Assembly: GCF_003334255.1 (NCBI RefSeq)
Contig: NZ_QOWU01000059.1
Source of the DNA: Escherichia coli
GTDB taxonomy: Bacteria > Pseudomonadota > Gammaproteobacteria > Enterobacterales > Enterobacteriaceae
Direction: 5' to 3' (one strand)
DNA length: 31,491 nucleotides
The position numbers and the translations under genes were made by a program. The stretch's first letter is position 1, and every line of letters starts with the position of its first letter. This document shows positions 407 to 23,692 of this stretch, piece after piece. Below the pieces are notes generated by a model that ran no database searches, was not told the DNA's origin, and saw only the letters and a list, made by a program, of their open reading frames with translations.

Positions 407-3400
407 ATGGGAAAAGGTGGCGGTAAGGCACACACGCCTCGTGAGGCGAAGGATAATCTCAAATCCACGCAGATGATGAGCGTGATTGATGCGATTGGTG
501 AGGGACCGATAGAAGGTCCGGTGAAGGGACTGCAGAGTATCCTGGTGAACAAAACCCCGCTGACGGACACGGACGGTAATCCCGTGATACACGGTGTGAC
601 GGCGGTCTGGCGCGCCGGGGAGCAGGAGCAGACACCACCGGAAGGCTTTGAGTCCTCCGGTGCTGAAACCGGACTGGGCGTGGAAGTGACGAAGGCAAAA
701 CCGGTGACGCGCACCATTACGTCCGCGAACATTGACCGCCTGCGGGTTACCTTCGGGGTGCAGTCACTGGTGCAGACCACGTCAAAGGGTGACCGAAACC
801 CGACATCCGTCCGCCTGCTGATTCAGTTACAGCGTAACGGTAACTGGGTGACAGAAAAGGATGTCACCATTAACGGCAAGACCACCTCGCAGTTTCTGGC
901 GTCGGTGATTCTGGATAATCTGCCTCCCCGTCCTTTTAACATCCGGATGGTCCGGGAGACAGCGGACAGCACCACGGACCAGCTGCAGAATAAGACGCTG
1001 TGGTCGTCATACACCGAAATCATCGATGTGAAACAGTGCTACCCGAACACGGCCATTGTGGGGCTGCAGGTGGATGCGGAGCAGTTCGGCGGCCAGCAGA
1101 TGACGGTGAACTACCATATCCGCGGTCGCATCATCCAGGTGCCGTCAAACTATGACCCGGAAAAACGCACGTACAGTGGTATCTGGGACGGCAGTCTGAA
1201 ACCGGCATACAGCAACAACCCGGCCTGGTGCCTGTGGGACATGCTGACTCACCCGCGCTACGGCATGGGAAAACGTCTGGGGGCGGCGGATGTGGACAAG
1301 TGGGCGCTGTATGCCATCGGGCAGTACTGCGACCAGACGGTCCCGGATGGTTTCGGGGGGACCGAGCCGCGGATGACCTTTAATGCGTACCTGGCACAAC
1401 AGCGTAAGGCGTGGGACGTTCTCAGTGATTTCTGCTCTGCGATGCGCTGTATGCCGGTATGGAACGGTCAGACGCTGACGTTCGTTCAGGACCGCCCGTC
1501 GGATGTGGTGTGGCCGTACACCAGCAGCGATGTGGTGGTGGATGATAACGGCGTGGGGTTCCGCTACAGCTTCAGTGCCCTGAAGGACCGGCACACGGCG
1601 GTGGAGGTGAATTACACCGACCCGCAGAACGGCTGGCAGACCTCCACGGAACTGGTGGAAGACCCGGAAGCCATACTGCGCTACGGACGCAACCTGCTGA
1701 AGATGGACGCGTTCGGCTGTACCAGCCGCGGTCAGGCCCACCGTGCCGGGCTGTGGGTGATAAAGACCGAACTGCTGGAAACGCAGACGGTGGATTTCAC
1801 GCTCGGGTCACAGGGGCTGCGTCACACACCCGGTGACATCATTGAAATCTGTGATAACGACTATGCCGGGACCATGACCGGCGGACGTGTCCTGTCCATC
1901 GATGCCGCCAGCCGTACCCTGACGCTGGACCGGGAGGTGACACTGCCGGAGACCGGCACGGCCACTGTTAATCTGATTAACGGCAGCGGTAAGCCGGCGA
2001 GCGTGGCCATCACCGCACACCCCGCGCCTGACCGGATACAGGTCAGCACCCTGCCGGATGGTGTGGAGACATACGGTGTGTGGGGACTCTCCCTGCCGTC
2101 ACTGCGTCGTCGCCTGTTCCGCTGTGTCTCCATCCGGGAAAACACGGACGGCACCTTTGCCATCACGGCGGTGCAGCACGTACCTGAAAAAGAAGCCATC
2201 GTGGATAACGGGGCCCGCTTTGAGCCGCAGTCAGGCACCCTGAACAGCGTTATCCCACCGGCAGTGCAGCACCTGACGGTGGAGGTGAGTGCAGCTGACG
2301 GTCAGTATCTGGCACAGGCGAAATGGGACACGCCGCGGGTGGTGAAGGGTGTGCGCTTCAGTCTGCGTCTGACCAGCGGAAGCGGAGAAGACAGCCGTCT
2401 GGTGAGCACCGCCAGCACCGCAGACACGGAGCACCGTTTCAGCGGCCTGCCACTGGGGGAATACACCCTGACGGTCAGGGCGATTAACAGTTATGGCCAG
2501 CAGGGCGAACCGGCCACCACCACGTTCAGGATTAACGCACCTGCAAAACCCGCCACCATTGAGCTGACGCCGGGGTATTTTCAGATAACGGCGGTCCCGC
2601 GTCTTGCGGTGTATGACCCGACGGTACAGTTTGAATTCTGGTTCTCAGAAAAACGCATCACGAACACAGCACAGGTGGAAAAATCTGCCCGTTATCTGGG
2701 GACCGGCAGTCAGTGGACTGTCCATGGGAGCCGGATTAAGCCGGGGACGGATTTCTGGTTTTACGTGCGAAGCGTCAACCTGGTGGGAAAATCTGCTTTT
2801 GTGGAAGCCAGCGGGCAGCCCAGCAATGATGGTGAAGGGTATCTGGAAATTTTCCGGGGGCTGATAGATGAGACGCTTCTGGGCCAGGCACTGAAAGAGC
2901 GCATTGATGCTTCAGCGCTGCGTACGGAGGTCACGCAACTGGAAGAAGACATCCGTCAGCGGATGGACACGGATATCGCAGAAGTGACCCGGAAAATCGG
3001 GAAGGCGGAAAACAGCCTCACGCAGCTGGTTGCGAAAAAGAATGAGGACCAGACACTGGCCATCGCGCAGGTGAGCCAGAAAGTGGACCGGGTGAGCAGT
3101 GAAATCTCACAGACTGTCAGCCAGGGGCAGTCAGAAAACGCCCGACAGATAGCACAGGTCCGCCAGTACGTGGATAAAAAAGGGAGTGAAATTACCTCGA
3201 CCACGGATAAAAAGCTGGGTGACCAGGCCGTGACCATACAGCAAATCCAGCGGGTTCAGTCAGACACGCGCAATGAGCTGAATGCCATGTATATGCTGAA
3301 GGTGCAGAAAACAAAAAACGGTATTCCCTATGTGGCCGGGATTGGCGCGGGGATTGAGGATGTTGATGGTCAGACGCTGAGCAGTATTCTGCTGCAGGCG

Positions 3401-4099
3401 GACCGTATCGCGATGATTACCCCGGAGAACGGCAACACCACGCCGCTGTTTGTGGCGCAGGGGAATCAGCTGTTCATGAACGACGTGTTCCTGAAGCGAC
3501 TGTTTGCGGTGAGCATCACGTCATCCGGCAATCCTCCTACGTTTTCCCTGACGCCGGATGGCAGGCTGACAGCCCGCAATGCGGATATCAGTGGAGCCAT
3601 CACGGCGAATACCGGCACGCTCAATAATGTCACCATTAACGAGAACTGTGTCATCAGAGGGAAACTGTCTGCAAACCAGATTGAAGGCGATCTCGTTAAA
3701 ACAGTGGGTAAGGCTTTCCCCCGTGACTCCCGTGCACCGGAGCGTTGGCCATCAGGAACCATTACCGTCAGGGTTTATGACGATCAGCCGTTTAACCGGC
3801 AGATTGTTATTCCGGCGGTGGCTTTCAGCGGTGCCAGACATGAGCGGGAGAACAGCGATACTTATTCGTCATGCCGCCTGATAGTACGGAAAAACGGTGC
3901 TGAAATTTATAACCGTACCGCGCTGGATAATACGCTGATTTACAGTGGTGTTATTGATATGCCTGCTGGTCGCGGCCACATGACGCTGGAGTTTTCTGTA
4001 TCAGCATGGTGGGTAAATGGCTGGTATCCCACAGCAAGTATCAGCGATTTGCTGGTTGTTGTGATGAAGAAAGCCACTGCAGGCATCACGATTAGCTGA
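407..4099 (+). CDS. J: Phage host specificity protein J (tail tip / central tail fiber), 1230 aa
   Basis: N-terminus [22 protein letters not shown]… and long collinear stretches (…[22 protein letters not shown]…, …[24 protein letters not shown]…, …[18 protein letters not shown]…) match lambda gpJ as I recall it. AGGGGAAGG Shine-Dalgarno lies ahead of the ATG at 407. About 100 aa longer than lambda J, with extra coiled-coil-like sequence near aa 820-950. Confidence 0.93.
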
Positions 4100-4166: not shown

Positions 4167-4766
4167 ATGCGTAAAGTTTGTGCAGCCATTTTGTCCGCAG
4201 CCATCTGTCTGTCCGTATCCGGTGCGCCTGCATGGGCGTCTGAACATCAGTCCACACTGAGCGCGGGGTATCTTCATGCCCGTACGAACGCTCCCGGCAG
4301 CGATAATCTGAACGGGATTAACGTGAAATACCGTTATGAGTTTACGGACGCGCTGGGGCTGATTACGTCCTTCAGTTATGCCAATGCTGAGGATGAGCAA
4401 AAAACGCACTACAGCGATACCCGCTGGCATGAAGATTCCGTGCGTAACCGCTGGTTCAGCGTGATGGCGGGGCCGTCTGTACGCGTGAATGAATGGTTCA
4501 GCGCGTATGCGATGGTGGGTGTGGCTTACAGCCGTGTGTCGACTTTCTCCGGGGATTATCTCCGCGTAACTGACAACAAGGGGAAAACGCACGATGTGCT
4601 GACCGGAAGTGATGACGGTCGCCACAGCAACACGTCTCTGGCGTGGGGGGCTGGCGTGCAGTTTAACCCGACCGAATCCGTAACCATTGACCTTGCTTAT
4701 GAAGGTTCCGGTAGTGGCGACTGGCGAACGGATGCATTTATTGTTGGTATCGGATACCGTTTCTGA
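4167..4766 (+). CDS. lom: Lom/Ail-family outer membrane beta-barrel protein (lambda lom homolog), 199 aa
   Basis: Signal peptide MRKVCAAILSAAICLSVSGAPAWA, C-terminal aromatic residue (…GIGYRF), GAGAGG Shine-Dalgarno, and the J-lom-stf order typical of lambdoid phages. Sequence resembles lambda Lom. Confidence 0.88.
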   Translation: MRKVCAAILSAAICLSVSGAPAWASEHQSTLSAGYLHARTNAPGSDNLNGINVKYRYEFTDALGLITSFSYANAEDEQKTHYSDTRWHEDSVRNRWFSVMAGPSVRVNEWFSAYAMVGVAYSRVSTFSGDYLRVTDNKGKTHDVLTGSDDGRHSNTSLAWGAGVQFNPTESVTIDLAYEGSGSGDWRTDAFIVGIGYRF

Positions 4767-4917: not shown

Positions 4918-7900
4918 ATGACAGTAAAAATTTCTGGCGTGCTTAAAGATGGCACAGGAAAACCAGTACAGAACTGCACCATTGTGCTGAAGGCCAGACG
5001 AACCAGCAGCACGGTGGTGGTGAACACGGTGGCCTCTGAAAATCCGGATGAAGCCGGACGTTACAGCATGGATGTTGAGCATGGCCAGTACAGCGTCACC
5101 CTGCTGGTTGAAGGTTTTCCGCCTTCACATGCCGGGACCATTACCGTCTATGAAGGTTCCAGACCAGGTACGCTGAATGATTTTCTCGGTGCCATGACGG
5201 AGGATGATGTCCGACCGGAGGCACTGCGCCGCTTTGAGCAGATGGTGGAAGAGGTGTCACGTAACGCCTCCGCGGTTGCACAGAATACGGCAGCCGCGAA
5301 AAAATCAGCCAGCGATGCCAGTGCATCAGCCAGCGAGGCGGCAACTCATGCAACCGATGCTGCAGCCTCAGCACGTGCCGCCAGCACGTCAGCCGGACAG
5401 GCCGCGTCGTCGGCTCAGTCAGCGTCTTCCAGCGCAGGAACGGCATCGACAAAGGCCCGTGAAGCAGCAAAAAGTGCTGCTGCTGCAGAGTCATCAAAAA
5501 GCGCGGCAGCTACCAGCGCCAGTGCCGCGAAAACGTCAGAAACGAATGCCGCAGCATCACAAAAATCGGCAGCCACTTCTGCATCCACAGCGACCACGAA
5601 GGCGTCAGAAGCTGCCACCTCGGCACGGGGTGCGGCGGCCTCAAAAGAGGCAGCGAAATCTTCAGAAACGAATGCATCATCAAGTGCCAGTAGTGCAGCT
5701 TCCTCGGCAACGGCGGCAGGAAATTCCGCGAAGGCGGCAAAAACGTCCGAGACGAACGCTAAGTCTTCTGAAACAGCAGCGGGACAGAGCGCCTCAGCTG
5801 CGGCAGGTTCAAAAACAGCGGCTGCATTATCTGCCAGTGCCGCGTCAACAAGTGCCGGGCAGGCCTCAGCCAGTGCCACCGCCGCCGGAAAATCGGCAGA
5901 AAGCGCCGCATCATCCGCTTCAACAGCCACAACGAAAGCTGGCAAAGCCACTGAGCAAGCCACTGCAGCAGCGAGGTCTGCTTCTGCAGCAAAAACCTCT
6001 GAAACAAATGCAAAGACTTCAGCAGACAATGCTGCTTCCTCTAAGGCGGCAGCCGCATCGTCAGCCAGTTCAGCGGCGTCATCGGCATCATCTGCGTCTG
6101 CTTCAAAAGATGAGGCGACCAGACAAGCGTCAGCAGCGAAAGGTAGTGCCACGACAGCAACAACGAAAGCATCAGAGGCGGCAGGCAGTGCGACGGCTGC
6201 ATCTCAGAGCAAAGTTGCTGCTGAATCCGCGGCAACGCGCGCCGAGACAGCAGCAAAACGGGCAGAGGATATTGCATCCGCCGTGGCGCTGGAGGATGCG
6301 AGCACGACGAAAAAGGGGATAGTACAGCTCAGCAGTGCAACAAACAGCACCAGTGAAAAGCTGGCGGCAACGCCAAAGGCAGTTAAAACTGTTAAAGATA
6401 GTTCAGTTCAAAAAACTGGCGACACAATGGGAGGGCAGTTAAAAATCAGCACGATAAATGCTCTTCGAATATTCAACCAAGCCTTTGGCCTTATTTTTAG
6501 GCGTTCCGAAGATCATCTTCATCTTATTCCGACTAATGAAGGGGAGGGGGAAAATGGAGACATCGGTTCATTAAGACCATTCTCTATAAACTTAAGATCA
6601 GGGTTGGTGTCCATCGGTAATGGACTAAAAGTTGGTGGTAGTGTTACTGGTAATTTGACCGGAAACGCAGATACTGCGACCAAGATCAAGACAGCACGTA
6701 AGATTGGGGGCGTGGCATTTGATGGATCGGCAGATATCAACTTGCCTGGAGTCAACGCTACCGGTAATCAAAACACTACAGGTAATGCTGCGACCGCCAC
6801 GAAACTTCAGGCAGCCAGAACGATTAACGGTGTGTCATTTGATGGTAGTGCAAATATCACATTGACCCCTTCAAATATTGGGGCATTGGCATTAACTGGA
6901 GGGACTCTTTCAGGTGGTTTAACTGCTGCTGGTGAGGTTATTTCAAGGTCAGCAAATGGTCTGCGTATTGCCTATGGCAACTATGGATTCTTTATCCGAA
7001 ATGATGGATCAAACACATATTTTATGTTGACAGATTCGGGTAACAGTCTTGGTACGCACAATAGCTTAAGGCCGTTTATAATTAGTAACCATACTGGCAA
7101 TGTTACAATTGCAACTAAATTAAACGCGAGTGGTGGTATCACTGGATCTTTATCGGGTAATGCAAGCACAGCAACCAAATTGCAAACTGCAAGGACAATT
7201 AACGGCGTAAAATTTGACGGCTCGGCAAATATTGAAGCGTTTCCGCCAGGTGTTCCGCTGCCGTGGCCATCAGATACACCACCTGCAGGTTATGCGATCA
7301 TGCAGGGGCAGACGTTTGATAAGGCAGCATATCCGAAACTGGCTATTGCCTATCCTTCAGGTGTTATTCCAGATATGCGCGGCTGGACAATCAAGGGCAA
7401 ACCCGCCAGTGGCCGGGCCGTATTGTCTCAGGAACAGGACGGCATAAAATCGCACACCCACAGCGCCAGCGCATCCAGTACGGATTTGGGGACGAAAACC
7501 ACATCGTCGTTTGATTACGGCACTAAATCCACGAATAACACCGGGGCGCATACGCACAGTCTGAGTGGCTCTACGGGGTCTGCCGGTGTTCATACTCATG
7601 GTAATGGTATTCGTTGGCCAGGAGGCGGCGGTTCTGCGTTAGCATTTTATGATGGCGGTGGGTTCACTTATGTCCAGAATTCACAGTATCAAGTAAGCCC
7701 GGAGACTTCTTCCTATAGATCGTATTATCAACGTATTCAGACACAGTCAGCAGGTGCTCATACCCACTCGCTGTCTGGTACTGCAGCAAGTTCTGGCGCA
7801 CATGCACATACTGTAGGTATTGGTGCGCATACGCACTCCGTTGCGATTGGTTCACATGGACACACCATCACCGTTAACGCTGCGGGTAACGCGGAAAACA

Positions 7901-7944
7901 CCGTCAAAAACATCGCATTTAACTATATTGTGAGGCTTGCATAA
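4918..7944 (+). CDS. stf: Side tail fiber protein (Stf-like), 1008 aa, mosaic
   Basis: N-terminus [22 protein letters not shown]… and C-terminus …[31 protein letters not shown] match lambda Stf as recalled. Contains an Ala/Ser/Thr-rich low-complexity segment, three copies of a G-N-x-x-TATK(L/I)-x-(T/A)AR-x-I-(N/G)GV-x-FDGSA(N/D)I phage tail-fiber repeat (about nt 6650-7240), and His-rich HTHS/HAHT repeats near the C-terminus. Confidence 0.9.
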
Positions 7945-8528
7945 TGGCATTCAGAATGAGTGAACAAGCACGGACCATAAAAATTTATAATCTGCTGGCC
8001 GGAACTAATGAATTTATTGGTGAAGGTGACGCATATATTCCGCCTCATACAGGTCTGCCAGCAAACAGTACCGATATTGCACCACCAGATATTCCTGCTG
8101 GCTTTGTGGCTGTTTTCAACAGTGATGAGGCATCGTGGCATCTCGTTGAAGACCATCGGGGGAAAACGGTTTATGACGTAGCGTCAGGGGACGAGTTATT
8201 TATTTCTGAACTCGGTCCGTTACCGGAAAATGTTACCTGGTTATCGCCGGAAGGGGAGTTTCAGAAGTGGAACGGCACAGCCTGGGTGAAGGATACGGAA
8301 GCAGAAAAACTGTTCCGGATCCGGGAGGCGGAAGAAACAAAAAACAACCTGATGCAGGTAGCCAGTGAGCATATTGCGCCGCTTCAGGATGCTGCAGATC
8401 TGGAAATTGCAACGGAGAAAGAAACCTCATTGCTGGAAGCCTGGAAAAAGTATCGGGTGTTGCTGAACCGTGTTGATACATCAACTGCACCTGATATTGA
8501 GTGGCCTACGAACCCTGTCAGGGAGTAA
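7944..8528 (+). CDS. tfa: Tail fiber assembly protein (Tfa), 194 aa
   Basis: [34 protein letters not shown]… is near-identical to lambda Tfa as recalled. The start overlaps the stf stop in a TAATG arrangement (translational coupling). Confidence 0.92.
8367..8528 (+). repeat. Direct repeat copy A (3' end of tfa), ~160 bp
   Basis: Nucleotide alignment by eye: gagcatattgcgccgcttcaggatgctgcagatctggaaattgcaacgg… versus gagtatattgcgccactgcaggatgctgtagatctggaaatcgcaacgg… at 9416; roughly 85-90% identity, same orientation. Confidence 0.75.
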
Positions 8529-8542
8529 TCATTGGGATTATG

Positions 8543-8590
8543 CCGCAGCACGTCTTAAGCAAGAACGTGCTGCGGTTGGATGCTATTTTT
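8543..8590. terminator. Hairpin plus T-run between convergent tfa (+) and methyltransferase (-); likely bidirectional terminator
   Basis: Perfect 11-bp stem CCGCAGCACGT (8543-8553) / ACGTGCTGCGG (8565-8575), 11-nt loop, then …tgctatttttt to 8590. Confidence 0.5.
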
Positions 8591-9251
8591 TCCCTGAAGC
8601 GGAAAACATTACTACAGTACCTTGAACCTTGGTTTTAACATTCTCGAAATGCTCTGAGAGTATATGTGTTAAGCCTTCTTCGGAATCTTTTGTGTTTGAA
8701 AAGATGCCTTTCTGATTGTAAATGCGCATCAGTTTTTGACCGAAGCTATTGTGCACAACTCCATCGCCAAGAATTGTGGCTCCGTATAGAGTTCCATCGT
8801 CAGTTAAGGCCTGCGCCGCATTGCGTATTACACAGCTTTTTGTAGATATATTTCCAGGCAGGCAGTGAAGAAGGTAAAACATGGAAATGGAATCAAATTG
8901 ACCATGTAACGCCGCGGGATAAGGTTCAAAAACATCATGGCTAATTTTATGTTTAATTTTTGATTCCCCAGCCCTTGTAGATGCCGCGTTCAGGCTAGCT
9001 TCGTTCAAATCCATTAAAGATATCAGACTACTCTCAGGTACGTGAGTAAGGTAAAACCCAGTTCCAACACCAATATCCAGATGGTTGTTACCTACATGTT
9101 CCAGAAAGTGTGGAAGAAGGTGTTCCTTTGTAGGACATCCCCATGCAAGCCGATTTGATACTCCCAAAACCCACCAGTCATAAAGCTTTAGGGTAAGTGG
9201 TGTGTAAATTTTAGCCCCATCATCTGTGTTTTTTTTCATTGATTTCACCAT
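8583..9251 (-). CDS. Class I SAM-dependent methyltransferase (prophage cargo gene), 222 aa from the first ATG
   Basis: Glycine-rich SAM-binding motif I (…HLDIGVGTGFYL…) followed by an acidic residue at the end of the next beta-strand (…ISLMDLNE…). Opposite strand to the tail genes and visibly more AT-rich than its flanks. The start is ambiguous: ATG at 9249-9251 (MVKS…) or ATG at 9236-9238 (MKKNT…, preceded by GGTGA at SD spacing). Confidence 0.75.
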   Translation of the reverse strand: MVKSMKKNTDDGAKIYTPLTLKLYDWWVLGVSNRLAWGCPTKEHLLPHFLEHVGNNHLDIGVGTGFYLTHVPESSLISLMDLNEASLNAASTRAGESKIKHKISHDVFEPYPAALHGQFDSISMFYLLHCLPGNISTKSCVIRNAAQALTDDGTLYGATILGDGVVHNSFGQKLMRIYNQKGIFSNTKDSEEGLTHILSEHFENVKTKVQGTVVMFSASGKK

Positions 9252-9805: not shown

Positions 9806-10669
9806 TTAATCATCTAATTCGCTCACCTTCTTATTCAGCAGACGAGAAGCGCGCCAGTAAACCAGCAACATCAGGCCCATTACGATAGTCAGCGTAATGC
9901 TGGTGGCTGCACCAAATGGCCAGTCACGAATATTGAGGAACTGTACCTTGATGACGTTACCGATCAGCAGGTTTTTCGCACCGCCCATCAGGTCGGACAC
10001 ATAGAACAGGCCCATCGCTGGCAGCATCACCAGCAAACATCCGGCAATAATTCCCGGCATCGTCAGTGGAATAATGATACGGATAAAAGTCTGTAACTTG
10101 CTGGCACCGAGATCGCGCGCCGCCTCAAGCAACGGCTTATCCAGTTTTTCGATACTGGAGTACAGCGGCATCACCATAAACGGTAGCAGAATGTAAACCA
10201 GACCGATAATCACCGCACTGGGCGTGAACATGATACGAATTGGTGTGTCGATAACGCCCAGCCAGAGCAAAAACTCGTTGAGATAGCCTTTGGTGCTGAG
10301 GAAAATTTTCAGCCCGTAGATGCGAATCAGTGAGTTGGTCCAGAAGGGAACAATCAGCAGAAACAGCAGCAGCGGACGCACCTTGTGTGGCAGCTTCGCC
10401 AGAAACCAGGCAAACGGGTAGCCCAGCACCAGGCAGGCGAGGGTGGCGATCAGCGCCATATTCAGCGAGTGCAATAGCACTTCAAAATAGAGCGGATCGA
10501 GCAGACGCGTGTAGTTATCCAGCGTAAAGACCATTTTGACGAAACTGGCGTCGTCGCGGGTCAAAAAGCTGGTGCCAATGATCATCAGGTTGGGCAGAAA
10601 GACAAACAACACAAGCCAACCGACAATAGTGACAATCACTACATTCTGGAACTTACTTGTGTTCTTCAT
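9806..10669 (-). CDS. potB: Spermidine/putrescine ABC transporter permease PotB
   Basis: Multi-pass permease sequence (…[20 protein letters not shown]…[21 protein letters not shown]…) directly downstream of, and overlapping, potA as in potABCD. The 287-aa ORF from the first ATG may exceed the true length; the real start could be an internal GTG/ATG. Confidence 0.85.
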
Positions 10670-11789
10670 CAGCCAGTACGACCTCCCAGCTTTCTACCCA
10701 ATTAATGGCCATTTTTTGGTCGAGAGAGTGGTCAAAGTCAGGGTCGTCTTCATTGAAGAATTCGCTGACCATCACCATCTTGCCATTTTCCAGTTCAACA
10801 ACCGACTCCAGCGTCATGCCTTTGTAGTTACGCTCACGAACGTAACCAATCAGCCCTTCAGCGTGGTTGTCGTCGTTAATCTCTTCAACACGTAAGTCTT
10901 CCGGGCGCAGCAGAACATGCAGTTTTTGCCCCGGTTCAACGGCGAAGTTAACGTAGATATTACATTCGCGGCCTTCAACGTTGGCGCGTACGCGCTGCTC
11001 GTCTAGACGTTCGATGACAGTGGCGTTAAACATATTGATTTCGCCAATGAAGCCGGCAACAAACAGGTTTTTCGGCTCTTCGTAAATTTCGCGCGGTGTA
11101 CCATCTTGCTCAATACGACCCTCGCGCATCACCACAATCCTGTCTGACATGGTGAGCGCTTCTTCCTGATCGTGAGTGACAAAGACGAAGGTAATACCAA
11201 GCTTACGCTGTAACGCTTTCAGCTCGTTCTGCATTTGCTTACGCAGTTTGTAATCCAGCGCTGAGAGCGACTCATCCAGCAACAACAGACGAGGCTTGTT
11301 AACCACCGCGCGAGCAATGGCGACGCGTTGCTGTTGACCACCAGAGAGCTGATGCGGTTTACGTTGAGCGAAGGTTTCCAGTTGCACCATCCGCAGGGCT
11401 TCCATCACGCGGGGCGTAATTTCAGCAGCGGGGGTTTTTTGCATGCGCAACCCAAAGGCCACATTTTCGAACACGGTCATGTGGGGGAAAAGTGCGTAGC
11501 TTTGGAAAACAGTGTTCACATAGCGGTTTTCCGCCGGAACGTGGGTGATGTCCTCGTTATCCAGCATGATGCGTCCGGAATCAACAGTTTCCAGACCTGC
11601 AATCAGGCGAAGAACGGTTGTTTTACCGCAGCCAGAAGGGCCAAGCAGCGTGAGGAACTCGCCATTGTTGATAGTCAGATCCAGCTGGGGAATGACCTCT
11701 TTACCATCAAAGCATTTGCGAATTCCCGCCAATTGCACCAGCGGTGAAAGCGAACTCGGTTGTTTATTCAATTTTTTACTCTGTCCCAT
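10653..11789 (-). CDS. potA: Spermidine/putrescine ABC transporter ATP-binding protein PotA, 378 aa
   Basis: Walker [13 protein letters not shown] signature [14 protein letters not shown], Walker B LLLLDE; length and sequence match E. coli PotA. Confidence 0.93.
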
Positions 11790-12038
11790 GTAAACGCAAC
11801 GGATGGCTTACCGATGCGGGGTTTGTGGTTAACCACCTTGGTGACTCTTAATGAGGGCGGTAATTCTACGGCAAACCGCTTGAATCGCCAATCTTTGTTG
11901 TGAATTACTGGCTTAGCTTTATATTCATTAAGGTAATGCTGATAAATATTCCCGCTTGCAGGGGTAAAAGTGACCTGACGCAATATTTGTCTTTTCTTGC
12001 TTCTTAATAATGTTGTCACAAAAAGTGAGGGTGACTAC

Positions 12039-13265
12039 ATGGATAAACTACTTGAGCGATTTTTGAACTACGTGTCTCTGGATACCCAATCAAAAGCAGG
12101 GGTGAGACAGGTTCCCAGCACGGAAGGCCAATGGAAGTTATTGCATCTGCTGAAAGAGCAGCTCGAAGAGATGGGGCTTATCAATGTGACCTTAAGTGAG
12201 AAGGGCACTTTGATGGCGACGTTACCGGCTAACGTCCCTGGCGATATCCCGGCGATTGGCTTTATTTCTCATGTGGATACCTCACCGGATTGCAGCGGCA
12301 AAAATGTGAATCCGCAAATTGTTGAAAACTATCGCGGTGGCGATATTGCGCTGGGTATCGGCGATGAAGTTTTATCACCGGTTATGTTCCCGGTGCTGCA
12401 TCAGCTACTGGGTCAGACGCTGATTACCACCGATGGTAAAACCTTGTTAGGTGCCGATGACAAAGCAGGTATTGCAGAAATCATGACCGCGCTGGCGGTA
12501 TTGCAACAGAAAAAAATTCCGCATGGTGATATTCGCGTCGCCTTTACCCCGGATGAAGAAGTGGGCAAAGGGGCGAAACATTTTGATGTTGACGCCTTCG
12601 ATGCCCGCTGGGCTTACACTGTTGATGGTGGTGGCGTAGGCGAACTGGAGTTTGAAAACTTCAACGCCGCGTCGGTCAATATCAAAATTGTCGGTAACAA
12701 TGTTCATCCGGGCACGGCGAAAGGAGTGATGGTAAATGCGCTGTCGCTGGCGGCACGTATTCATGCGGAAGTTCCGGCGGATGAAAGCCCGGAAATGACA
12801 GAAGGCTATGAAGGTTTCTATCATCTGGCGAGCATGAAAGGCACCGTTGAACGGGCCGATATGCACTACATCATCCGTGATTTCGACCGTAAACAGTTTG
12901 AAGCGCGTAAACGTAAAATGATGGAGATCGCCAAAAAAGTGGGCAAAGGGTTACATCCTGATTGCTACATTGAACTGGTGATTGAAGACAGTTACTACAA
13001 TATGCGCGAGAAAGTGGTTGAGCATCCGCATATTCTCGATATCGCCCAGCAGGCGATGCGCGATTGCGATATTGAACCGGAACTGAAACCGATCCGCGGT
13101 GGTACCGACGGCGCGCAGTTGTCGTTTATGGGATTACCGTGCCCGAACCTGTTCACTGGCGGTTACAACTATCATGGTAAGCATGAGTTTGTGACTCTGG
13201 AAGGTATGGAAAAAGCGGTGCAGGTGATCGTCCGTATTGCCGAGTTAACGGCGCAACGGAAGTAA
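12039..13265 (+). CDS. pepT: Peptidase T (tripeptide aminopeptidase), 408 aa
   Basis: [21 protein letters not shown]… matches E. coli PepT. Start chosen at ATG 12039 (GTGAGGGTGA Shine-Dalgarno upstream) rather than the longest-ORF start at 11997. Confidence 0.9.
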
Positions 13266-13273
13266 GCGAAAAG

Positions 13274-13298
13274 GGATGCGGCATGTGATGCCGCATCC
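13274..13298. terminator. Hairpin between convergent pepT and roxA (GATGCGGCAT-gtg-ATGCCGCATC)
   Basis: 11-bp stem read directly; sits in the 48-bp gap between two convergent genes. Confidence 0.45.
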
Positions 13299-13313
13299 GG
13301 CTTAAATCCAAAC

Positions 13314-14435
13314 TTACCCTTCGAAGAACCAATACCCGCTATTGACCAGCGCCGCGAGCATCGCGAGGAATGACGGATCTTCCAGCGCATCGCCAAAATT
13401 CTCCGCAGTCAGCGCAATGTTGCTGGCGAGTGCATCCAGTGCCGGACGGTGCGGGGAATCGATCTTCTCACCATTGGCATACACGTCGTCGCCAATGCGC
13501 AATACGCGCAGACCACCCAGGCGCACCAGCACTTCACCTTGTTTCAGCGCATCGTAGATTTCATCCGGCTGATAAGGCGGCTCTGGCGGCGCGATATCCA
13601 GTTCATGACGTGACTGGGATATAAACTCGCCAAACCATTGCTTAAAGTGTTCCGGCTGGTTGATCAATTCGAGCATCATCTCACGCAGTTTATCCATCTC
13701 TTGCGGCAGAACATCCGCAGGATGAGCGCGAGGTGGAACATCCGGATCGCTGTAGTAGTTGCCGCCCAGTTCACGTTGCAGCACATAATCGGCAAATCCA
13801 CTAATCAGTTCCCGCGTATTTGGCGCGCGAAAGCCCACGGAATAGTTCATCGCATTTTCCAGCGCGTAGCCTTCATGCGGGAATCCTGGCGGAATATAAA
13901 GAATATCGCCAGGCTCCAGCTCTTCATCGATGATGGCTTCGAACGGATCGACCTGTAACAGATCCGGGTGTGGGCAGTGCTGTTTCATTTGCAGCTTTTC
14001 GCCCACTCGCCAGCGACGACGTCCGGTACCCTGAATGATAAACACGTCGTACTGATCGAGATGCGGGCCGACGCCGCCGCCAGGTACAGAAAAAGAGATC
14101 ATCAGATCATCAATACGCCAGTCCGGTAGTTCACGGAACGGTCGCATCAGCGCGGCGGTCGGCTCATGCCAGTGATTTACTGCTTGCACTAACAATGACC
14201 AGTTAGTTTCACCGAGATGATCGTAGCTTTCGAACGGACCGTGGCTGACCTGCCATTTGCCATCCTGGTGACTGACCAGTCGACTGTCGACTTCGCTTTC
14301 CATCGCCAGACCCGCCAACTCGTCTGGAGAGATCGGGTCAATAAAATTATTAAAGCCGCGTTTTAACACCACCGGGCGTTTCTGCCAGTGACGTTCAAGA
14401 AAATCGGGCCAGTTAAGAGTGAGTTGGTATTCCAT
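13314..14435 (-). CDS. roxA: Ribosomal oxygenase RoxA/YcfD (cupin/JmjC-like 2-oxoglutarate oxygenase), 373 aa
   Basis: MEYQLTLNWPDFLERHWQKRPVVLKRGF… matches E. coli YcfD. Start set at the internal ATG (14433-14435) that gives the K-12 length. Confidence 0.85.
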   Translation of the reverse strand: MEYQLTLNWPDFLERHWQKRPVVLKRGFNNFIDPISPDELAGLAMESEVDSRLVSHQDGKWQVSHGPFESYDHLGETNWSLLVQAVNHWHEPTAALMRPFRELPDWRIDDLMISFSVPGGGVGPHLDQYDVFIIQGTGRRRWRVGEKLQMKQHCPHPDLLQVDPFEAIIDEELEPGDILYIPPGFPHEGYALENAMNYSVGFRAPNTRELISGFADYVLQRELGGNYYSDPDVPPRAHPADVLPQEMDKLREMMLELINQPEHFKQWFGEFISQSRHELDIAPPEPPYQPDEIYDALKQGEVLVRLGGLRVLRIGDDVYANGEKIDSPHRPALDALASNIALTAENFGDALEDPSFLAMLAALVNSGYWFFEG

Positions 14436-14510
14436 GTTAAGCATCCACAGGCTGGTATCTGCAACCGATTATAACGGATGCTTAACGTAATGCGTGAAGT
14501 ATGGACATAT

Positions 14511-15971
14511 TTATTCATCTTTCGGCGCAGAATGCTGGCGACCAAAAATCACCTCCATCCGCGCACCGCCCAGCATGCTCTCTCCGGCGACGATTTTACC
14601 CTCATATTGCTCGGTGATTTCGCGGGCTACCGCCAGCCCTACACCTTGCCCAGGGCGTAAAGTATCAACCCGTTGACCACGGTCGAAAATGACCTCTCGC
14701 TTGCTTAATGGAATACCGGGTCCATCATCCTCGACCACAATATAGAGATGCTCGTCGGTTTGCCTTGCAGAAATTTCGACAAACTCGAGGCAATATTTAC
14801 AGGCATTATCCAGCACATTGCCCATCACCTCGACAAAATCGTTCTGCTCACCGACAAAGCTGATCTCTGGCGAAATATCGAGAGAGATATTGACCCCTTT
14901 GCGTTGATACACTTTGTTCAGCGCCGAGGTGAGATTGTCCAGCAGTGGGGCGACCGGATGCAGCTCGCGGCTAAGCAATGTCCCGCCGCGCATACTGGCA
15001 CGATGCAGGTAGTAGCCAATTTGCTGTGAAATGCGGCTGATTTGCTCCAGCATTACCGGTTCAGCATCACTGACGCTCATCTTTTCACTACGCAGAGAAC
15101 GCAGCGTACTTTGCAGCACCGCCAGTGGCGTTTTCAGACTATGGGTCAGGTCGGTGAGCGTCGTACGGTATTTGTCGTAACGTTCGCGTTCACTTTTTAA
15201 CAATCGGTTCAGGTTTCGTACCAGACTGGTCAGTTCTCGCGTTGTGGCTGGATTGAGCAATTCGCGGTTATGTTCTTCCAGTTCGCGGACTTCTTTTGCC
15301 AGGGCTTCGATGGGGCGTAAACTCCACCAGGCGGCGACCCACAGCAGCGGGATCACTAACAGCAGATTGGCTGAGAGCACATAGATAAACCAGCTCCAGA
15401 CCATATAGGAACTTTTTAGCTCCACCGGAATGGTATCCACCACCACAATGGTTAATTTTGGCATCCGCGATGTTGCCGGGTAGACGTTTACTGCCACCGA
15501 GTGGGTCATCTCCGCGTCGTCGTCATCTTCCCGCACTTCCTGCAACTGTTGCTGTATCGAATGATCTCCACTCAGCAAGAGGCTGGTATCGTTAACATCC
15601 GCTTCAATTTCATGAAAACCATTCGATTTCAGCCAGTCAGGCTGGATCATCTTCATCAGCCAGGGCACGTCACGTTGCGCCCATAAAAGCTGCCCGTTCT
15701 CATCATAAATTAGCGTCATGGTGGGGCTTTGCTTGTCGATATTTTCTGGTAACTCGACATGCAACTTATTGTTTTCCCACTTCGCAAGGGTATAGAACAG
15801 ATTGCTTTCGCCACGTAACAGCCGAAACGTAGTTTTATCGAAACTGACGCTATAACCGATCAGCGCGACCATTCCGTAGGCAAGCGAAAGCACCAGTACT
15901 ACCGCTGCCGTTGCCAACAGAAAACGTACCCGCAGCGAGAGCGGGAAAAAAAGACGCAGTAATTTTTTCAT
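14511..15971 (-). CDS. phoQ: Sensor histidine kinase PhoQ, 486 aa
   Basis: [25 protein letters not shown]…, acidic patch EDDDDAE, H-box [12 protein letters not shown]; full-length match to E. coli PhoQ. Start overlaps the phoP stop (ATGA). Confidence 0.95.
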
Positions 15972-16642
15972 CAGCGCAATTCGAACAGATAGCCCTGGCC
16001 GCGAACGGTGGTAATCACTTCTTGCGGATATTGTGCCTGAATTTTTTTGCGCAGACGTCCCATCAGTACATCAATGGTATGGCTTTCCCGCAGCTCCGCA
16101 TCCGGATAGAGTTGTAGCATTAACGAATCTTTGCTCACCACTTTGCCATTATTGCGTATCAACGTTTCCATAATGGTGTATTCGAACGCGGTCAGTTTGA
16201 TCACTTCGTCATTAATAGATAATTCACGGCGAGAGAGATCAACCTGAAACGGGGGGAGCGAAATGACCTGTGAAGCCAGACCGCTATTACGCCGCATTAA
16301 TGCCTGCATTCGCGCCATCACCTCTTCAATATGAAACGGTTTAGTCACATAATCATCAGCACCGGCACTTAATACTTCGACTTTGTCCTGCCAGCTTTCA
16401 CGGGCGGTTAATACCAGAATCGGCAGTGAAACATCGTTGCTACGCCAGCGGCGAATCAGTGACAGACCGTCCTCGTCTGGCAATCCGAGATCGACAATCG
16501 CAATATCCGGTATATGTTCATTGAGATAATAATCGGCTTCTTTGGCATCTTCTGCGTCATCGACCTGATGACCAGCATCCTGAATCTGAACTTTAAGGTG
16601 GTGACGTAACAACGCATTGTCTTCAACAACCAGTACGCGCAT
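15971..16642 (-). CDS. phoP: Response regulator PhoP, 223 aa
   Basis: [40 protein letters not shown]… is an OmpR-family receiver plus winged-helix protein matching E. coli PhoP. Confidence 0.95.
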
Positions 16643-16702
16643 TTTTATTTCTCCCTGTCTTAATTATTAAAATAGTGTAACGCGATTATGTGGTTATGGG
16701 GG

Positions 16703-16719
16703 TAAACATTAAATAAACC
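16703..16719 (-). promoter_or_regulatory. PhoP box (direct repeat GGTTTA-N5-TGTTTA on the minus strand) upstream of phoPQ
   Basis: Plus strand reads taaacattaaataaacc; the reverse complement is GGTTTATTTAATGTTTA, which fits the (T/G)GTTTA-N5-(T/G)GTTTA consensus, ~60 bp upstream of the phoP ATG. Confidence 0.6.
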
Positions 16720-16810
16720 AGCGGGGAGGGGAGGTAAAGTGAAAAAATAAAAAGCGGATAATCTTAATAAGCAGGCCGGACAGCATCGCCATCCGGCACT
16801 GATACGAGGT

Positions 16811-18184
<1,374 letters not shown>

Positions 18185-18832
18185 TCACAACTCCGGGGTT
18201 AAATGAGCAAGAATTTGTTTTGCCTGAGTGGTCAGGCGATTACGAGAAAACATCAGTTGCAGACGTCCGCCGCCGACCTGGTGCCAGAGCACGGTGGCGC
18301 GAATGCCTGCCAGCAGGGTTGCGCGAACTTTCGCCTGCACTTGTGGGCTTTGCAGTACAGCAGGGGAACCGGTGACCTGAATGCGCGGGCCAAGCGGGCT
18401 AATCACATCAACATAGATAGCAGCCATCGCGCTCATCAGCGTTTCGGACTGTAAATCGAAGTGTTCGAGCTGGCGTTGCAGGCCGTTGATCCGGTTGCCC
18501 AGAGTGTCGAGCGCGCCTTTCGCTGAGGAGAGTTTGCGCTCAAGCACCATCAAGCTGAGTGTGTAGCGGGTTAATTCGGCGTTTAAGCCCTGGCGACTGC
18601 TGGCATTGAGCACGCCGAGCAGGGTTTCCAGCCCGACGCGCAGGTTGGCTTCGCTACCGCCAAAAACCGCCAGCGTCGAGCTGGGGTTCATATCAATAAT
18701 ACTGTTGAGTGAGACGTGTAGCGCATCGGCATCACAATGCCCCTGGTGAGCGAGTTGTTGCACCAGGCGTGCCGACTGACAAATACCGGCCAGGGCGAGG
18801 GTGATGTCATAGTAATTCTTTGCCACGTTCAC
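18185..18832 (-). CDS. hflD: High-frequency lysogenization protein HflD (YcfC)
   Basis: …[46 protein letters not shown]… matches HflD. The true start may be a GTG two codons inside the longest ORF. Confidence 0.88.
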
Positions 18833-18861
18833 TGCTTCCTTGTTTTAAGTAAAGATAATAA

Positions 18862-20483
<1,622 letters not shown>

Positions 20484-20492
20484 TTTGCATCC

Positions 20493-21146
20493 TTAATCTG
20501 TCACTTCTCGCCATTCGCCATTGGCAAGATTATCCAAAGAGTAATCACCCATCGCATAGCGAATCAGTCGCAGCGTGGGGAAGCCAACATGGGCGGTCAT
20601 GCGGCGCACCTGGCGATTACGTCCTTCATATAAGGTGATCTTCAGCCAGCTGGTGGGAATACTTTTGCGTTCACGAATTGGTGGATTCCGCGGCCATAAC
20701 CACGCGGGTTCGTCAACCAGCTCCGCGCCGGCGGGCAGGGTAGGGCCATCATTTAAGGTTACGCCATTGCGCAAGGCTTCAAGTGCGTCTTGTGTGGGAA
20801 TACCTTCCACCTGCACATAATAGATTTTTCCGGTGCGTTTACCCGGCTGGGTTAAACGCGCCTGCAACGCGCCGTTATTGGTCAGCACCAGCAACCCTTC
20901 GCTATCGCGGTCAAGGCGACCTGCTGCATAAACGCCCTGAACCGGGATGAATTCTTTTAATGTTTTGCGTCCGGCTTCATCGGTGAACTGCGGAAGAACA
21001 TCGTAGGGTTTATTGAACAGGATCACACGCGTGGGCTGGTTTTCAGGTTTACGCCTGGTAGAACGTTGCGAGCTGAATCGCTTAACCTGGTGATTTCTAA
21101 AAGAAGTTTTTTGCATGGTATTTTCAGAGATTATGAATTGCCGCAT
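20493..21146 (-). CDS. rluE: 23S rRNA pseudouridine synthase RluE, 217 aa
   Basis: RsuA/RluE-family motifs (…[21 protein letters not shown]…); conserved position divergent from icd. Confidence 0.9.
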
Positions 21147-21317
21147 TATAGCCTAATAACGCGCATCTTTCATGACGGCAAACAATAGGGTAGTATTGAC
21201 AAGCCAATTACAAATCATTAACAAAAAATTGCTCTAAAGCATCCGTATCGCAGGACGCAAACGCATATGCAACGTGGTGGCAGACGAGCAAACCAGTAGC
21301 GCTCGAAGGAGAGGTGA

Positions 21318-22568
21318 ATGGAAAGTAAAGTAGTTGTTCCGGCACAAGGCAAGAAGATCACCCTGCAAAACGGCAAACTCAACGTTCCTGAAAATCCGAT
21401 TATCCCTTACATTGAAGGTGATGGAATCGGTGTAGATGTAACCCCAGCCATGCTGAAAGTGGTCGACGCTGCAGTCGAGAAAGCCTATAAAGGCGAGCGT
21501 AAAATCTCCTGGATGGAAATTTACACCGGTGAAAAATCCACACAGGTTTATGGTCAGGACGTCTGGCTGCCTGCTGAAACTCTTGATCTGATTCGTGAAT
21601 ATCGCGTTGCCATTAAAGGTCCGCTGACCACTCCGGTTGGTGGCGGTATTCGCTCTCTGAACGTTGCCCTGCGCCAGGAACTGGATCTCTACATCTGCCT
21701 GCGTCCGGTACGTTACTATCAGGGCACTCCAAGCCCGGTTAAACACCCTGAACTGACCGATATGGTTATCTTCCGTGAAAACTCGGAAGACATTTATGCG
21801 GGTATCGAATGGAAAGCAGACTCTGCCGACGCCGAGAAAGTGATTAAATTCCTGCGTGAAGAGATGGGGGTGAAGAAAATTCGCTTCCCGGAACATTGTG
21901 GTATCGGTATTAAGCCGTGTTCGGAAGAAGGCACCAAACGTCTGGTTCGTGCAGCGATCGAATACGCAATTGCTAACGATCGTGACTCTGTGACTCTGGT
22001 GCACAAAGGCAACATCATGAAGTTCACCGAAGGAGCGTTTAAAGACTGGGGCTACCAGCTGGCGCGTGAAGAGTTTGGCGGTGAACTGATCGACGGTGGC
22101 CCGTGGCTGAAAGTTAAAAACCCGAACACTGGCAAAGAGATCGTCATTAAAGACGTGATTGCTGATGCATTCCTGCAACAGATCCTGCTGCGTCCGGCTG
22201 AATATGATGTTATCGCCTGTATGAACCTGAACGGTGACTACATTTCTGACGCCCTGGCAGCGCAGGTTGGCGGTATCGGTATCGCCCCTGGTGCAAACAT
22301 CGGTGACGAATGCGCCCTGTTTGAAGCCACCCACGGTACTGCGCCGAAATATGCCGGTCAGGACAAAGTAAATCCTGGCTCTATTATTCTCTCCGCTGAG
22401 ATGATGCTGCGCCATATGGGTTGGACTGAAGCGGCTGACCTGATTGTTAAAGGTATGGAAGGCGCAATCAATGCCAAGACCGTAACTTATGACTTCGAAC
22501 GTCTGATGGAAGGCGCTAAGCTGCTGAAATGTTCAGAGTTTGGTGAAGCGATCATCGAAAACATGTAA
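21318..22568 (+). CDS. icd: NADP-dependent isocitrate dehydrogenase, 416 aa
   Basis: [45 protein letters not shown]… is a full-length match to E. coli Icd, with strong codon bias. Confidence 0.96.
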
Positions 22569-22591
22569 TCTCTCCATGTGTTAAATATTGA

Positions 22592-22622
22592 AACGGGCGT
22601 ATAACACGCCCGTTGTTTTATT
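22592..22622 (+). terminator. icd intrinsic terminator (AACGGGCGT-ataac-ACGCCCGTT followed by GTTTTATTTAT)
   Basis: 9-bp perfect stem followed by a T-rich run, 24 bp after the icd stop. Confidence 0.65.
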
Positions 22623-22670
22623 TATGTGGATATTATTAATAGCATATCGAGCATATTTATATGAAGCCCA

Positions 22671-22994
22671 TTACTTGAGCCCATATGGGCATATTTTTAT
22701 AATGCAACTATTATGTAAACATTTATTTGTTATTTTGCTTTCTCCTGGAGGACACTCTTGACTGCTTTTGAGTAAACTCCATAAATCCTTGTTGAATGGT
22801 GCGATGTGATAAATAGTAATAGGATATTCTTTATCCTTAAGGATAATACCAGACTTAACCGGTGTAAATATACTGCCAGGAGGGAGAAATATAGTAGATT
22901 GATACCAGATGATCATTTTCATATTACCCCATATGGCTGAAAAAGATATACCACATGTAGGTTGAATTACCGTGTCAATTACTATCCACTTCAT
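22671..22994 (-). CDS. iraM: Anti-adaptor protein IraM (RssB inhibitor; YcgW), 107 aa
   Basis: [32 protein letters not shown]… recognised as IraM; AT-rich gene immediately after icd, as in K-12 once e14 is discounted. Confidence 0.8.
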
Positions 22995-23454
22995 TTGTTA
23001 TGTCTTATCCCACGGTATTTAATATGGTTCATTAGGATGTTTATTTCTTGATTTTGCATATGAGTATATTACCCCCCCCTCAAAAAATAAATTAATTAAA
23101 ATGATGGCTTATATAAAATAAAATTTAAAGCAAGGAATCTCAATGGATGTTAAACAAAATGAGATTTTGTGAAAGCAATAAATTATTGACTTCGTTTTAG
23201 ATTTGTTTAGCTATAATGTTATACATTCAAATGACTGAACATCCTGTAATTAAAACATAGCCTTTATGCTACTTTGTACCAATTTGCTAAACATTATGGT
23301 TGCCTTTTTATATAACGATAATAATGAATATAAGCATGACATGAGAATAAGGTTTCAATTTTTGAGTTATATAGGAATGATTTAACCTGTTCCTGGCTAA
23401 AATACATATAACCGGATGATGACTAAACCAAAATACATGTGCGTTAAGTATTGA

Positions 23455-23485
23455 AACGGACGTGTGGCACGGCCGTTGTTTTTAT
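23455..23485 (+). terminator. Second, diverged copy of the icd-terminator-like hairpin (AACGGACGTG-tgg-CACGGCCGTT followed by GTTTTTATAAA)
   Basis: 9/10-bp stem then a T-run on the plus strand. About 45 bp (from ttgaaacgg…) resembles 22585-22625 at roughly 80% identity. Confidence 0.35.
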
Positions 23486-23692
23486 AAATATGTTAACCGT
23501 TATAAAATAACGTATCAAAAGTCAAGTGATCACATTTCAAATATCAAGTTGATAGTATTAGTCTGGTGATTATTTATGGGTGACAATAAAAAGACAGTAT
23601 TAATCATCCATAGAGATAGTCTCTGCACTTTTATTTCCATTATGCTAATGCCTTACTGAATTATGAAGCATTTCTTAAGTATCCAACTTTAG

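Follow-up and report, generated by a model that had tools for sequence, protein, structure and literature searches.

A PhoP box at promoter P1 of phoPQ in an Escherichia coli contig that also carries the reported PhoP target gene iraM

Introduction

Is the direct repeat upstream of phoP in this stretch of Escherichia coli DNA the site through which PhoP controls its own operon, and how much of that answer can a motif scan carry? The whole stretch analysed, hereafter the window, comprises 31,491 bp of contig NZ_QOWU01000059.1 (assembly GCF_003334255.1). The autoregulatory PhoP box of phoPQ has been known since the 1990s, and the phoPQ promoter P1 of E. coli K-12, with its PhoP box, was reportedly described by Kato, Tanabe and Utsumi in 1999. 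An earlier note, made from the letters of the window alone, had read a repeat upstream of phoP as such a site, had called the region K-12-like, and had offered it, along with iraM, as an internal control for motif scanning.

Results

The exact pattern GGTTTANNNNNTGTTTA occurs once on the two strands of the 31,491-bp window. The match lies on the minus strand at 16703..16719, where it reads GGTTTATTTAATGTTTA, that is, GGTTTA at 16719..16714, the spacer TTTAA at 16713..16709 and TGTTTA at 16708..16703. It agrees without a single mismatch with the definition of the PhoP box as two direct-repeat (T/G)GTTTA hexamers 5 nt apart. By arithmetic from the base composition of the window, the exact pattern would be expected about 0.005 times, and it appeared in none of 100 dinucleotide-preserving shuffles. 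Exactly 60 nt lie between the 3' end of the box (16703) and the phoP ATG (16642..16640), so that the earlier observation of a GGTTTA-N5-TGTTTA direct repeat on the minus strand, about 60 bp upstream of phoP, was borne out. The interval that had been given for it, 16643-16810, is the whole purB-phoP intergenic spacer; the motif is inside it but takes up only 16703..16719.

Read along the minus strand, the spacer presents CCTCCCCTCCCCGC, T, GGTTTA, TTTAA, TGTTTA, CCCCCATAACCA, CATAAT, CGCGTTACAC and, further on, GACAGGGAGAAATAAAA and the ATG. The curated PhoP-binding site of E. coli phoP consists of the two blocks TGGTTTAT and ATGTTTAC (Harari 2010, Figure S2), and the box in the window equals this entry letter for letter. 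The whole spacer (16643..16810) shows no mismatch to K-12 MG1655, and 16300..16720 is likewise 100% identical, so that the K-12 phoPQ P1 promoter has the same nucleotides throughout the spacer and on into phoP for its first 340 nt. The C-rich tract CCTCCCCTCCCCGC stands directly 5' of the box (16721..16734, minus strand) and is one C longer in ATCC 25922; most species have a C-rich stretch, not conserved in sequence, between the purB terminator and the box.

All the genes next to the box lie on the minus strand. The open reading frame at 15971..16642 is phoP, which encodes the 223-aa response regulator, and purB occupies 16811..18181; both assignments agree with the RefSeq annotation of identical DNA. 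The gene for the 486-aa sensor kinase, phoQ (14511..15971), shares 1 nt with the phoP stop and belongs to the same operon. Nucleotides 15900..18300 are 100% identical to several E. coli chromosomes, in which RefSeq annotates phoQ, phoP, purB and hflD, and the PhoP, PhoQ, PurB and IraM proteins are identical to those of K-12 MG1655.

The description of the region as K-12-like therefore holds for the sequence of the locus, where the element is no different from that of K-12 phoPQ, but not for the layout of its surroundings, which lack e14 and in which a lambdoid prophage end adjoins potB. The window aligns to K-12 over 9824..22619, through icd, and over 22404..24990 to K-12 DNA past e14. Since the K-12 alignment resumes beyond it, the e14 prophage (15.2 kb, running from icd to iraM in MG1655) is absent; iraM comes directly after icd, as in E. 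coli HS, with 22569..22670 as the stretch from icd to iraM, and lies 6 kb from phoP compared with about 21 kb in K-12. At the other end, a lambdoid prophage that K-12 lacks fills 1..~9823 with its tail end, and this DNA matches a prophage of ATCC 25922 at 100% identity. Its genes here are gpJ (407..4099), a member of the Lom family (4167..4766), one gene each for a tail fibre (4918..7944) and for tail fibre assembly (7944..8528) and, on the minus strand, a SAM methyltransferase gene (8583..9251). Homology to K-12 begins at 9824, 12 nt within the 3' end of potB, and the window contains neither potC nor potD. From this starting point of the homology, the phage would sit at the potB/potC junction and replace the last potB codons. 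The sole Rfam match in the window, IS009 (RF02111, 222 bits) at 8287..8485 (plus strand), lies inside the tail fibre assembly gene of this prophage.

Downstream of the box, a gap of exactly 12 nt, CCCCCATAACCA (16702..16691), leads to CATAAT (16685..16690, minus strand), which its sequence and its position 12 nt 3' of the box mark as the -10 hexamer of the PhoP-dependent promoter P1. Zwir et al. defined architecture I by one box in direct orientation that ends 12 nt 5' of the -10 hexamer (11 nt in yrbL), and promoters of this type, which include Salmonella phoP and mgtA, are class II promoters with the box over the -35 position (Zwir 2012). The same layout was found here: a single box on the phoP strand, 12 nt from CATAAT and over the -35 position. 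At the proper spacing from CATAAT, the -35 position reads TTTAAT and matches the consensus at 3 of 6 letters. A consensus sigma-70 scan of the spacer did not detect P1, and it returned no usable P2 either; P1 was missed because it has no -35 hexamer, as expected of an activator-dependent promoter.

The stretch CGCGTTACAC (16675..16684, minus strand), which conservation singles out, comprises the discriminator and the presumed start region of P1. Judged by its position 7 nt after the -10, the most likely transcription start is the A near 16678, and the 5' leader would then span about 36 nt. A Shine-Dalgarno sequence, GGGAG (16651..16655, minus strand), is seen 8 nt 5' of the phoP ATG, and AGGGAGAA is kept in most species. 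At the far side of the spacer, a terminator scan and RNA folding picked out the hairpin GCCGGATGGCGATGCTGTCCGGC (16775..16797, minus strand; -20.3 kcal/mol, z = -2.9), which is likely to be the purB terminator. The Rfam scan of the whole window gave nothing in the purB-phoP spacer.

We compared the locus across the family using a PhoP-based scan with one genome per species, which yielded 80 Enterobacteriaceae loci with PhoP identities of 91-100%. The pattern (T/G)GTTTA-N5-(T/G)GTTTA is perfect in 41 of the 80 species, and has one mismatch in 9 and two mismatches in about 9-12. About 60 of the 80 keep the box in place, with the ATG 57-64 nt and the -10 hexamer 11-12 nt away. In the 80-species alignment, the two hexamers of the box carry 1.08 and 1.34 bits per column, compared with 0.55 for the 5-nt spacer and 0.66 for the 12-nt gap; this contrast between conserved hexamers and a variable spacer is the expected footprint of a protein target with two half-sites. 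The -10 hexamer reaches 1.51 bits per column with a mean conservation of 92%, and the start region CGCGTTACAC, at 1.57 bits per column, is the best-conserved non-coding stretch. Conservation of the box has also been reported in ten species (Perez et al. 2009). Within E. coli, every one of the 5,426 complete genomes has the locus, spacer included, and 4,050 of 5,425 records match a 50-nt core at 100% identity. Three of four other sampled strains differ in this core, only within the 12-nt gap, with hexamers and -10 unchanged.

The box is not indispensable across the family, as about 18 of the 80 species have none at the phoP-proximal position. Loci of this kind include members of the Citrobacter freundii complex and the Enterobacter cloacae complex (L018, 138..1427; L030, 1143..1427), and in them homology to E. 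coli restarts at the -10 hexamer (CATAATCAGCGTTAAAC). In C. braakii the gene for a 429-aa tyrosine integrase ends about 70 nt 5' of phoP, and E. hormaechei retains an integrase remnant, with purB 952 nt away. The restart of homology at the -10, taken with the integrase, therefore points to an integrative element that inserted within P1, between the box and the -10. Two further loci, from Citrobacter amalonaticus S646 (L010) and Intestinirhabdus alba (L068), have a perfect box 187 and 211 nt 5' of the phoP ATG in place of the usual distance of about 60 nt, which suggests an insertion between promoter and gene.

E. coli phoPQ is transcribed from one PhoP-P-activated promoter and from one constitutive promoter, P2 (Ram & Goulian 2013). 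The primers P5 and P6 of that study map exactly to the window and set the published deletion at 16734..16807. The fragment left after this deletion (16733 and downstream) still responded to PhoP-P (Ram & Goulian 2013), and sequence from 14 nt 5' of the box therefore suffices for PhoP-P control, in DNA with the same letters as the window. The deletion also marks 16734..16750 (minus strand) as the region with the -35 of P2, for which TTCACT (16743..16738) and TTTACC (16738..16733) are candidates. Our hexamer search gave only weak candidates (TTTACC-17-TATTTA), so that P2 is placed here by the published deletion and not by sequence. Its -10 would then lie within the PhoP box, at about 16710-16720. 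This position raises a second role for the site, compatible with activation of P1: box-bound PhoP-P could also occlude the -10 of P2, and the operon would, when induced, switch from P2 to P1. We consider this rather unlikely, with some weight left to it. The PhoP-independent phoP transcript is indeed more abundant in high than in low Mg2+ (Zwir 2012), but phoP mutants show the same drop in low Mg2+ (Zwir 2012), which argues against occlusion by PhoP as the cause, and the weakness of the P2 hexamers tells against the proposal as well.

The box region is also approached from the opposite strand. Transfer of the K-12 annotation (b4843, 1190165..1190508, offset 1,173,805 nt) places the antisense RNA AsphoP at 16360..16703 (plus strand), a span that covers the 5' coding region of phoP, the leader and the -10 hexamer of P1. 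Its annotated 3' end (K-12 1190508, window 16703) abuts the box on the promoter-proximal side. The AsphoP promoter and RNA have been validated in K-12, where a 300-320-nt species was seen in an rnc mutant, and the annotated 3' end derives from RNA-seq coverage (Lejars 2022). A 318-nt duplex would reach from the AsphoP start to the P1 start proposed above, and is consistent with that start. The coincidence of the annotated end with the box edge could be taken to mean that the repeat serves primarily another OmpR-family regulator, or as a roadblock or endpoint for AsphoP, and is not an activator site. Such a reading is very improbable: the hexamers are a perfect PhoP consensus, (T/G)GTTTA, and the northern fragments of 300-320 nt would place the AsphoP end at about 16660-16680, not at the box. 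Moreover, the box is conserved family-wide, whereas conservation of the AsphoP promoter does not extend beyond E. coli (Lejars 2022), and AsphoP therefore does not account for the conserved box.

To scan the window for PhoP sites, we built a 16-column matrix from 44 distinct curated non-phoP sites of E. coli and Salmonella (Harari 2010, Figure S2). The phoP box, at 15.25 bits, exceeded the median of the training sites (14.7) and took rank 1 of 62,946 positions, and ranks 2-4 all fell inside the 698-bp region upstream of iraM. The matrix comparison of phoP with iraM that the earlier note had proposed as a check was thus run and did not refute the motif. With an E. coli-only matrix of 19 sites the box came fourth, behind the three sites of the iraM region. 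When all 19 columns were scored, matrices from Table 1 of Zwir 2012 put it at rank 3 (25 activation sites) or rank 1 (38 sites). A matrix of 16 direct Salmonella sites with the spacer columns scored (Zwir 2012, Table 1) left the box outside the top 15; as evidence against the box, we rejected this matrix as over-fitted, given its few sites, its scoring of the spacer and its penalty on the C in the 3' flank.

Within the 168-bp purB-phoP spacer, local shuffles gave P = 0.004 for the score of the box, and the curated matrix found no further site of at least 9 bits. Over the whole window, 46 of 200 shuffles (23%) reached 15.25 bits, and the matrix alone is not significant at this scale; since a top score is so common in shuffled DNA, it is the geometry (12 nt to the -10) and the conservation that secure the call. 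The suggestion that the locus could act as a control for motif scanning needs the same qualification, as the box is a verified positive control but the matrix is weak by itself, its score being matched in 23% of shuffles. Further matches of 11-12 bits with the 44-site matrix lie at 25951..25969 (plus strand), within the bluF coding region, and at 30445..30476 (plus strand), where two overlap about 120-150 nt 5' of the open reading frame 30591..31436; both places are in AT-rich DNA, and these matches are probably background.

That the box is a chance T-rich direct repeat in an AT-rich spacer, with no regulatory role, is effectively excluded: PhoP-like matrix matches are common in AT-rich DNA, as the frequency of the score in shuffles and the 15 matches in the window to KGTTTA-N5-KGTTTA with at most two mismatches (8.2 expected; uninformative alone) both illustrate, but the exact 12-base consensus is hardly ever expected or met in shuffles, the box stands at a functional distance from a conserved -10 hexamer, about 60 of the 80 species keep the hexamers and not the spacer, and the sequence is identical to the experimentally studied K-12 promoter.

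The other PhoP-related gene of the window, iraM (22671..22994, minus strand), encodes the 107-aa RssB anti-adaptor, as taken from the RefSeq and K-12 annotations. Its induction is PhoQ-dependent and about 20-fold (PMC5740661), and a review states that it is under PhoP/PhoQ control on Mg2+ starvation (PMC10948607). The presence in the same window of a reported PhoP target thus stands, with the dependence on PhoQ and PhoP resting on the literature. Literature searches returned no usable mapped promoter or PhoP site for iraM. The three matrix hits upstream of it are candidates for such a site. The one nearest the gene is a direct candidate, TGTTTA-ACATC-CATTGA at 23140..23156 (minus strand; matrix span 23139..23157; 13.04 bits, rank 4), which is followed after 12 nt by a -10-like TAAATT (23127..23122), the distance of architecture I/II. 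Farther upstream are two candidates in reverse orientation to iraM, both on the plus strand: CGTTTT-AGATT-TGTTTA at 23193..23209 (span 23192..23210; 14.46 bits, rank 2), which the degenerate consensus search also recovered, and TATATA-GGAAT-GATTTA at 23368..23384 (span 23367..23385; 14.36 bits, rank 3).

The 698-bp region holds three matches of 13 bits or more, compared with 0.23 expected (P = 0.0035 by local shuffles), a figure to be read with the 29% G+C of the region, which inflates such matches. In a gapped alignment all three candidate boxes are identical in K-12, and the region upstream of iraM differs from K-12 by one SNP (23278) and one T in a T-run, and by nothing else. This T-run, T6 here and T7 in K-12, stands with a G8 run at 23076..23093 (TTTTTTGAGGGGGGGG, minus strand) in the presumed iraM leader.

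Discussion

We conclude that the direct repeat at 16719..16703 is almost certainly the PhoP box of the phoPQ promoter P1, with the binding of PhoP-P and the PhoP dependence of P1 taken from the literature. The autoregulatory reading put forward earlier is upheld by identity to K-12 and to the curated site, by the 12-nt geometry, by rank 1 in the matrix scan and by the phylogenetic footprint. In the mechanism we propose, low Mg2+ or other PhoQ stimuli would lead PhoQ to phosphorylate PhoP, and a PhoP-P dimer would bind both hexamers head to tail, over the -35 position. As the box lies over a -35 position that has no usable -35 hexamer, PhoP-P would recruit RNA polymerase as a class II activator. 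Transcription would then run from about 16678 through phoP and phoQ, giving positive autoregulation, while the constitutive P2 just upstream would supply basal PhoP and PhoQ.

Related systems share parts of this arrangement. Salmonella enterica phoP has the same direct box with the hexamers GGTTTA and TGTTTA, 12 nt from the -10 and overlapping the -35 position. Its spacer reads TTAAC where that of E. coli reads TTTAA, and its 3' flank has T in place of C. The Salmonella leader of 34 nt (Zwir 2012) is short, as is the leader of about 36 nt proposed here. Deletion of the phoP box in Salmonella abolished growth in low Mg2+ (Perez et al. 2009). Positive autoregulation through a PhoP box is shared with y1795-phoPQ of Yersinia pestis (Perez et al. 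2009); there, however, the box lies 5' of the preceding gene y1795 and none adjoins phoP (Perez et al. 2009), whereas in the window it is immediately 5' of phoP. The mgtA/treR box of E. coli has the consensus direct repeat and class II geometry in common with phoP, but both halves of the mgtA site read GGTTTA and the mgtA leader is long and regulatory, while the phoP leader is short and phoP is also served by a constitutive promoter.

Beyond the box itself, two more speculative possibilities arise, to which, taken jointly, we give only a slim chance. The cluster of three hits, with its direct candidate 12 nt from TAAATT, may mark a PhoP-dependent promoter of iraM; or else AsphoP, which runs from inside phoP through the start and -10 of P1, may end at the box edge because PhoP-P or a P1-bound RNA polymerase blocks it. 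If AsphoP were stopped in this way, PhoP occupancy would set the length or the amount of an antisense RNA relative to PhoP's own mRNA.

The PhoP box of phoPQ is an element already known and ordinary, and brings nothing new to biology. It can serve motif scans of this window as a verified positive control and helps to calibrate PhoP matrices: of about 63,000 positions, the four best are at phoP and in the iraM region, but about a quarter of shuffled windows reach as high a top score by chance.
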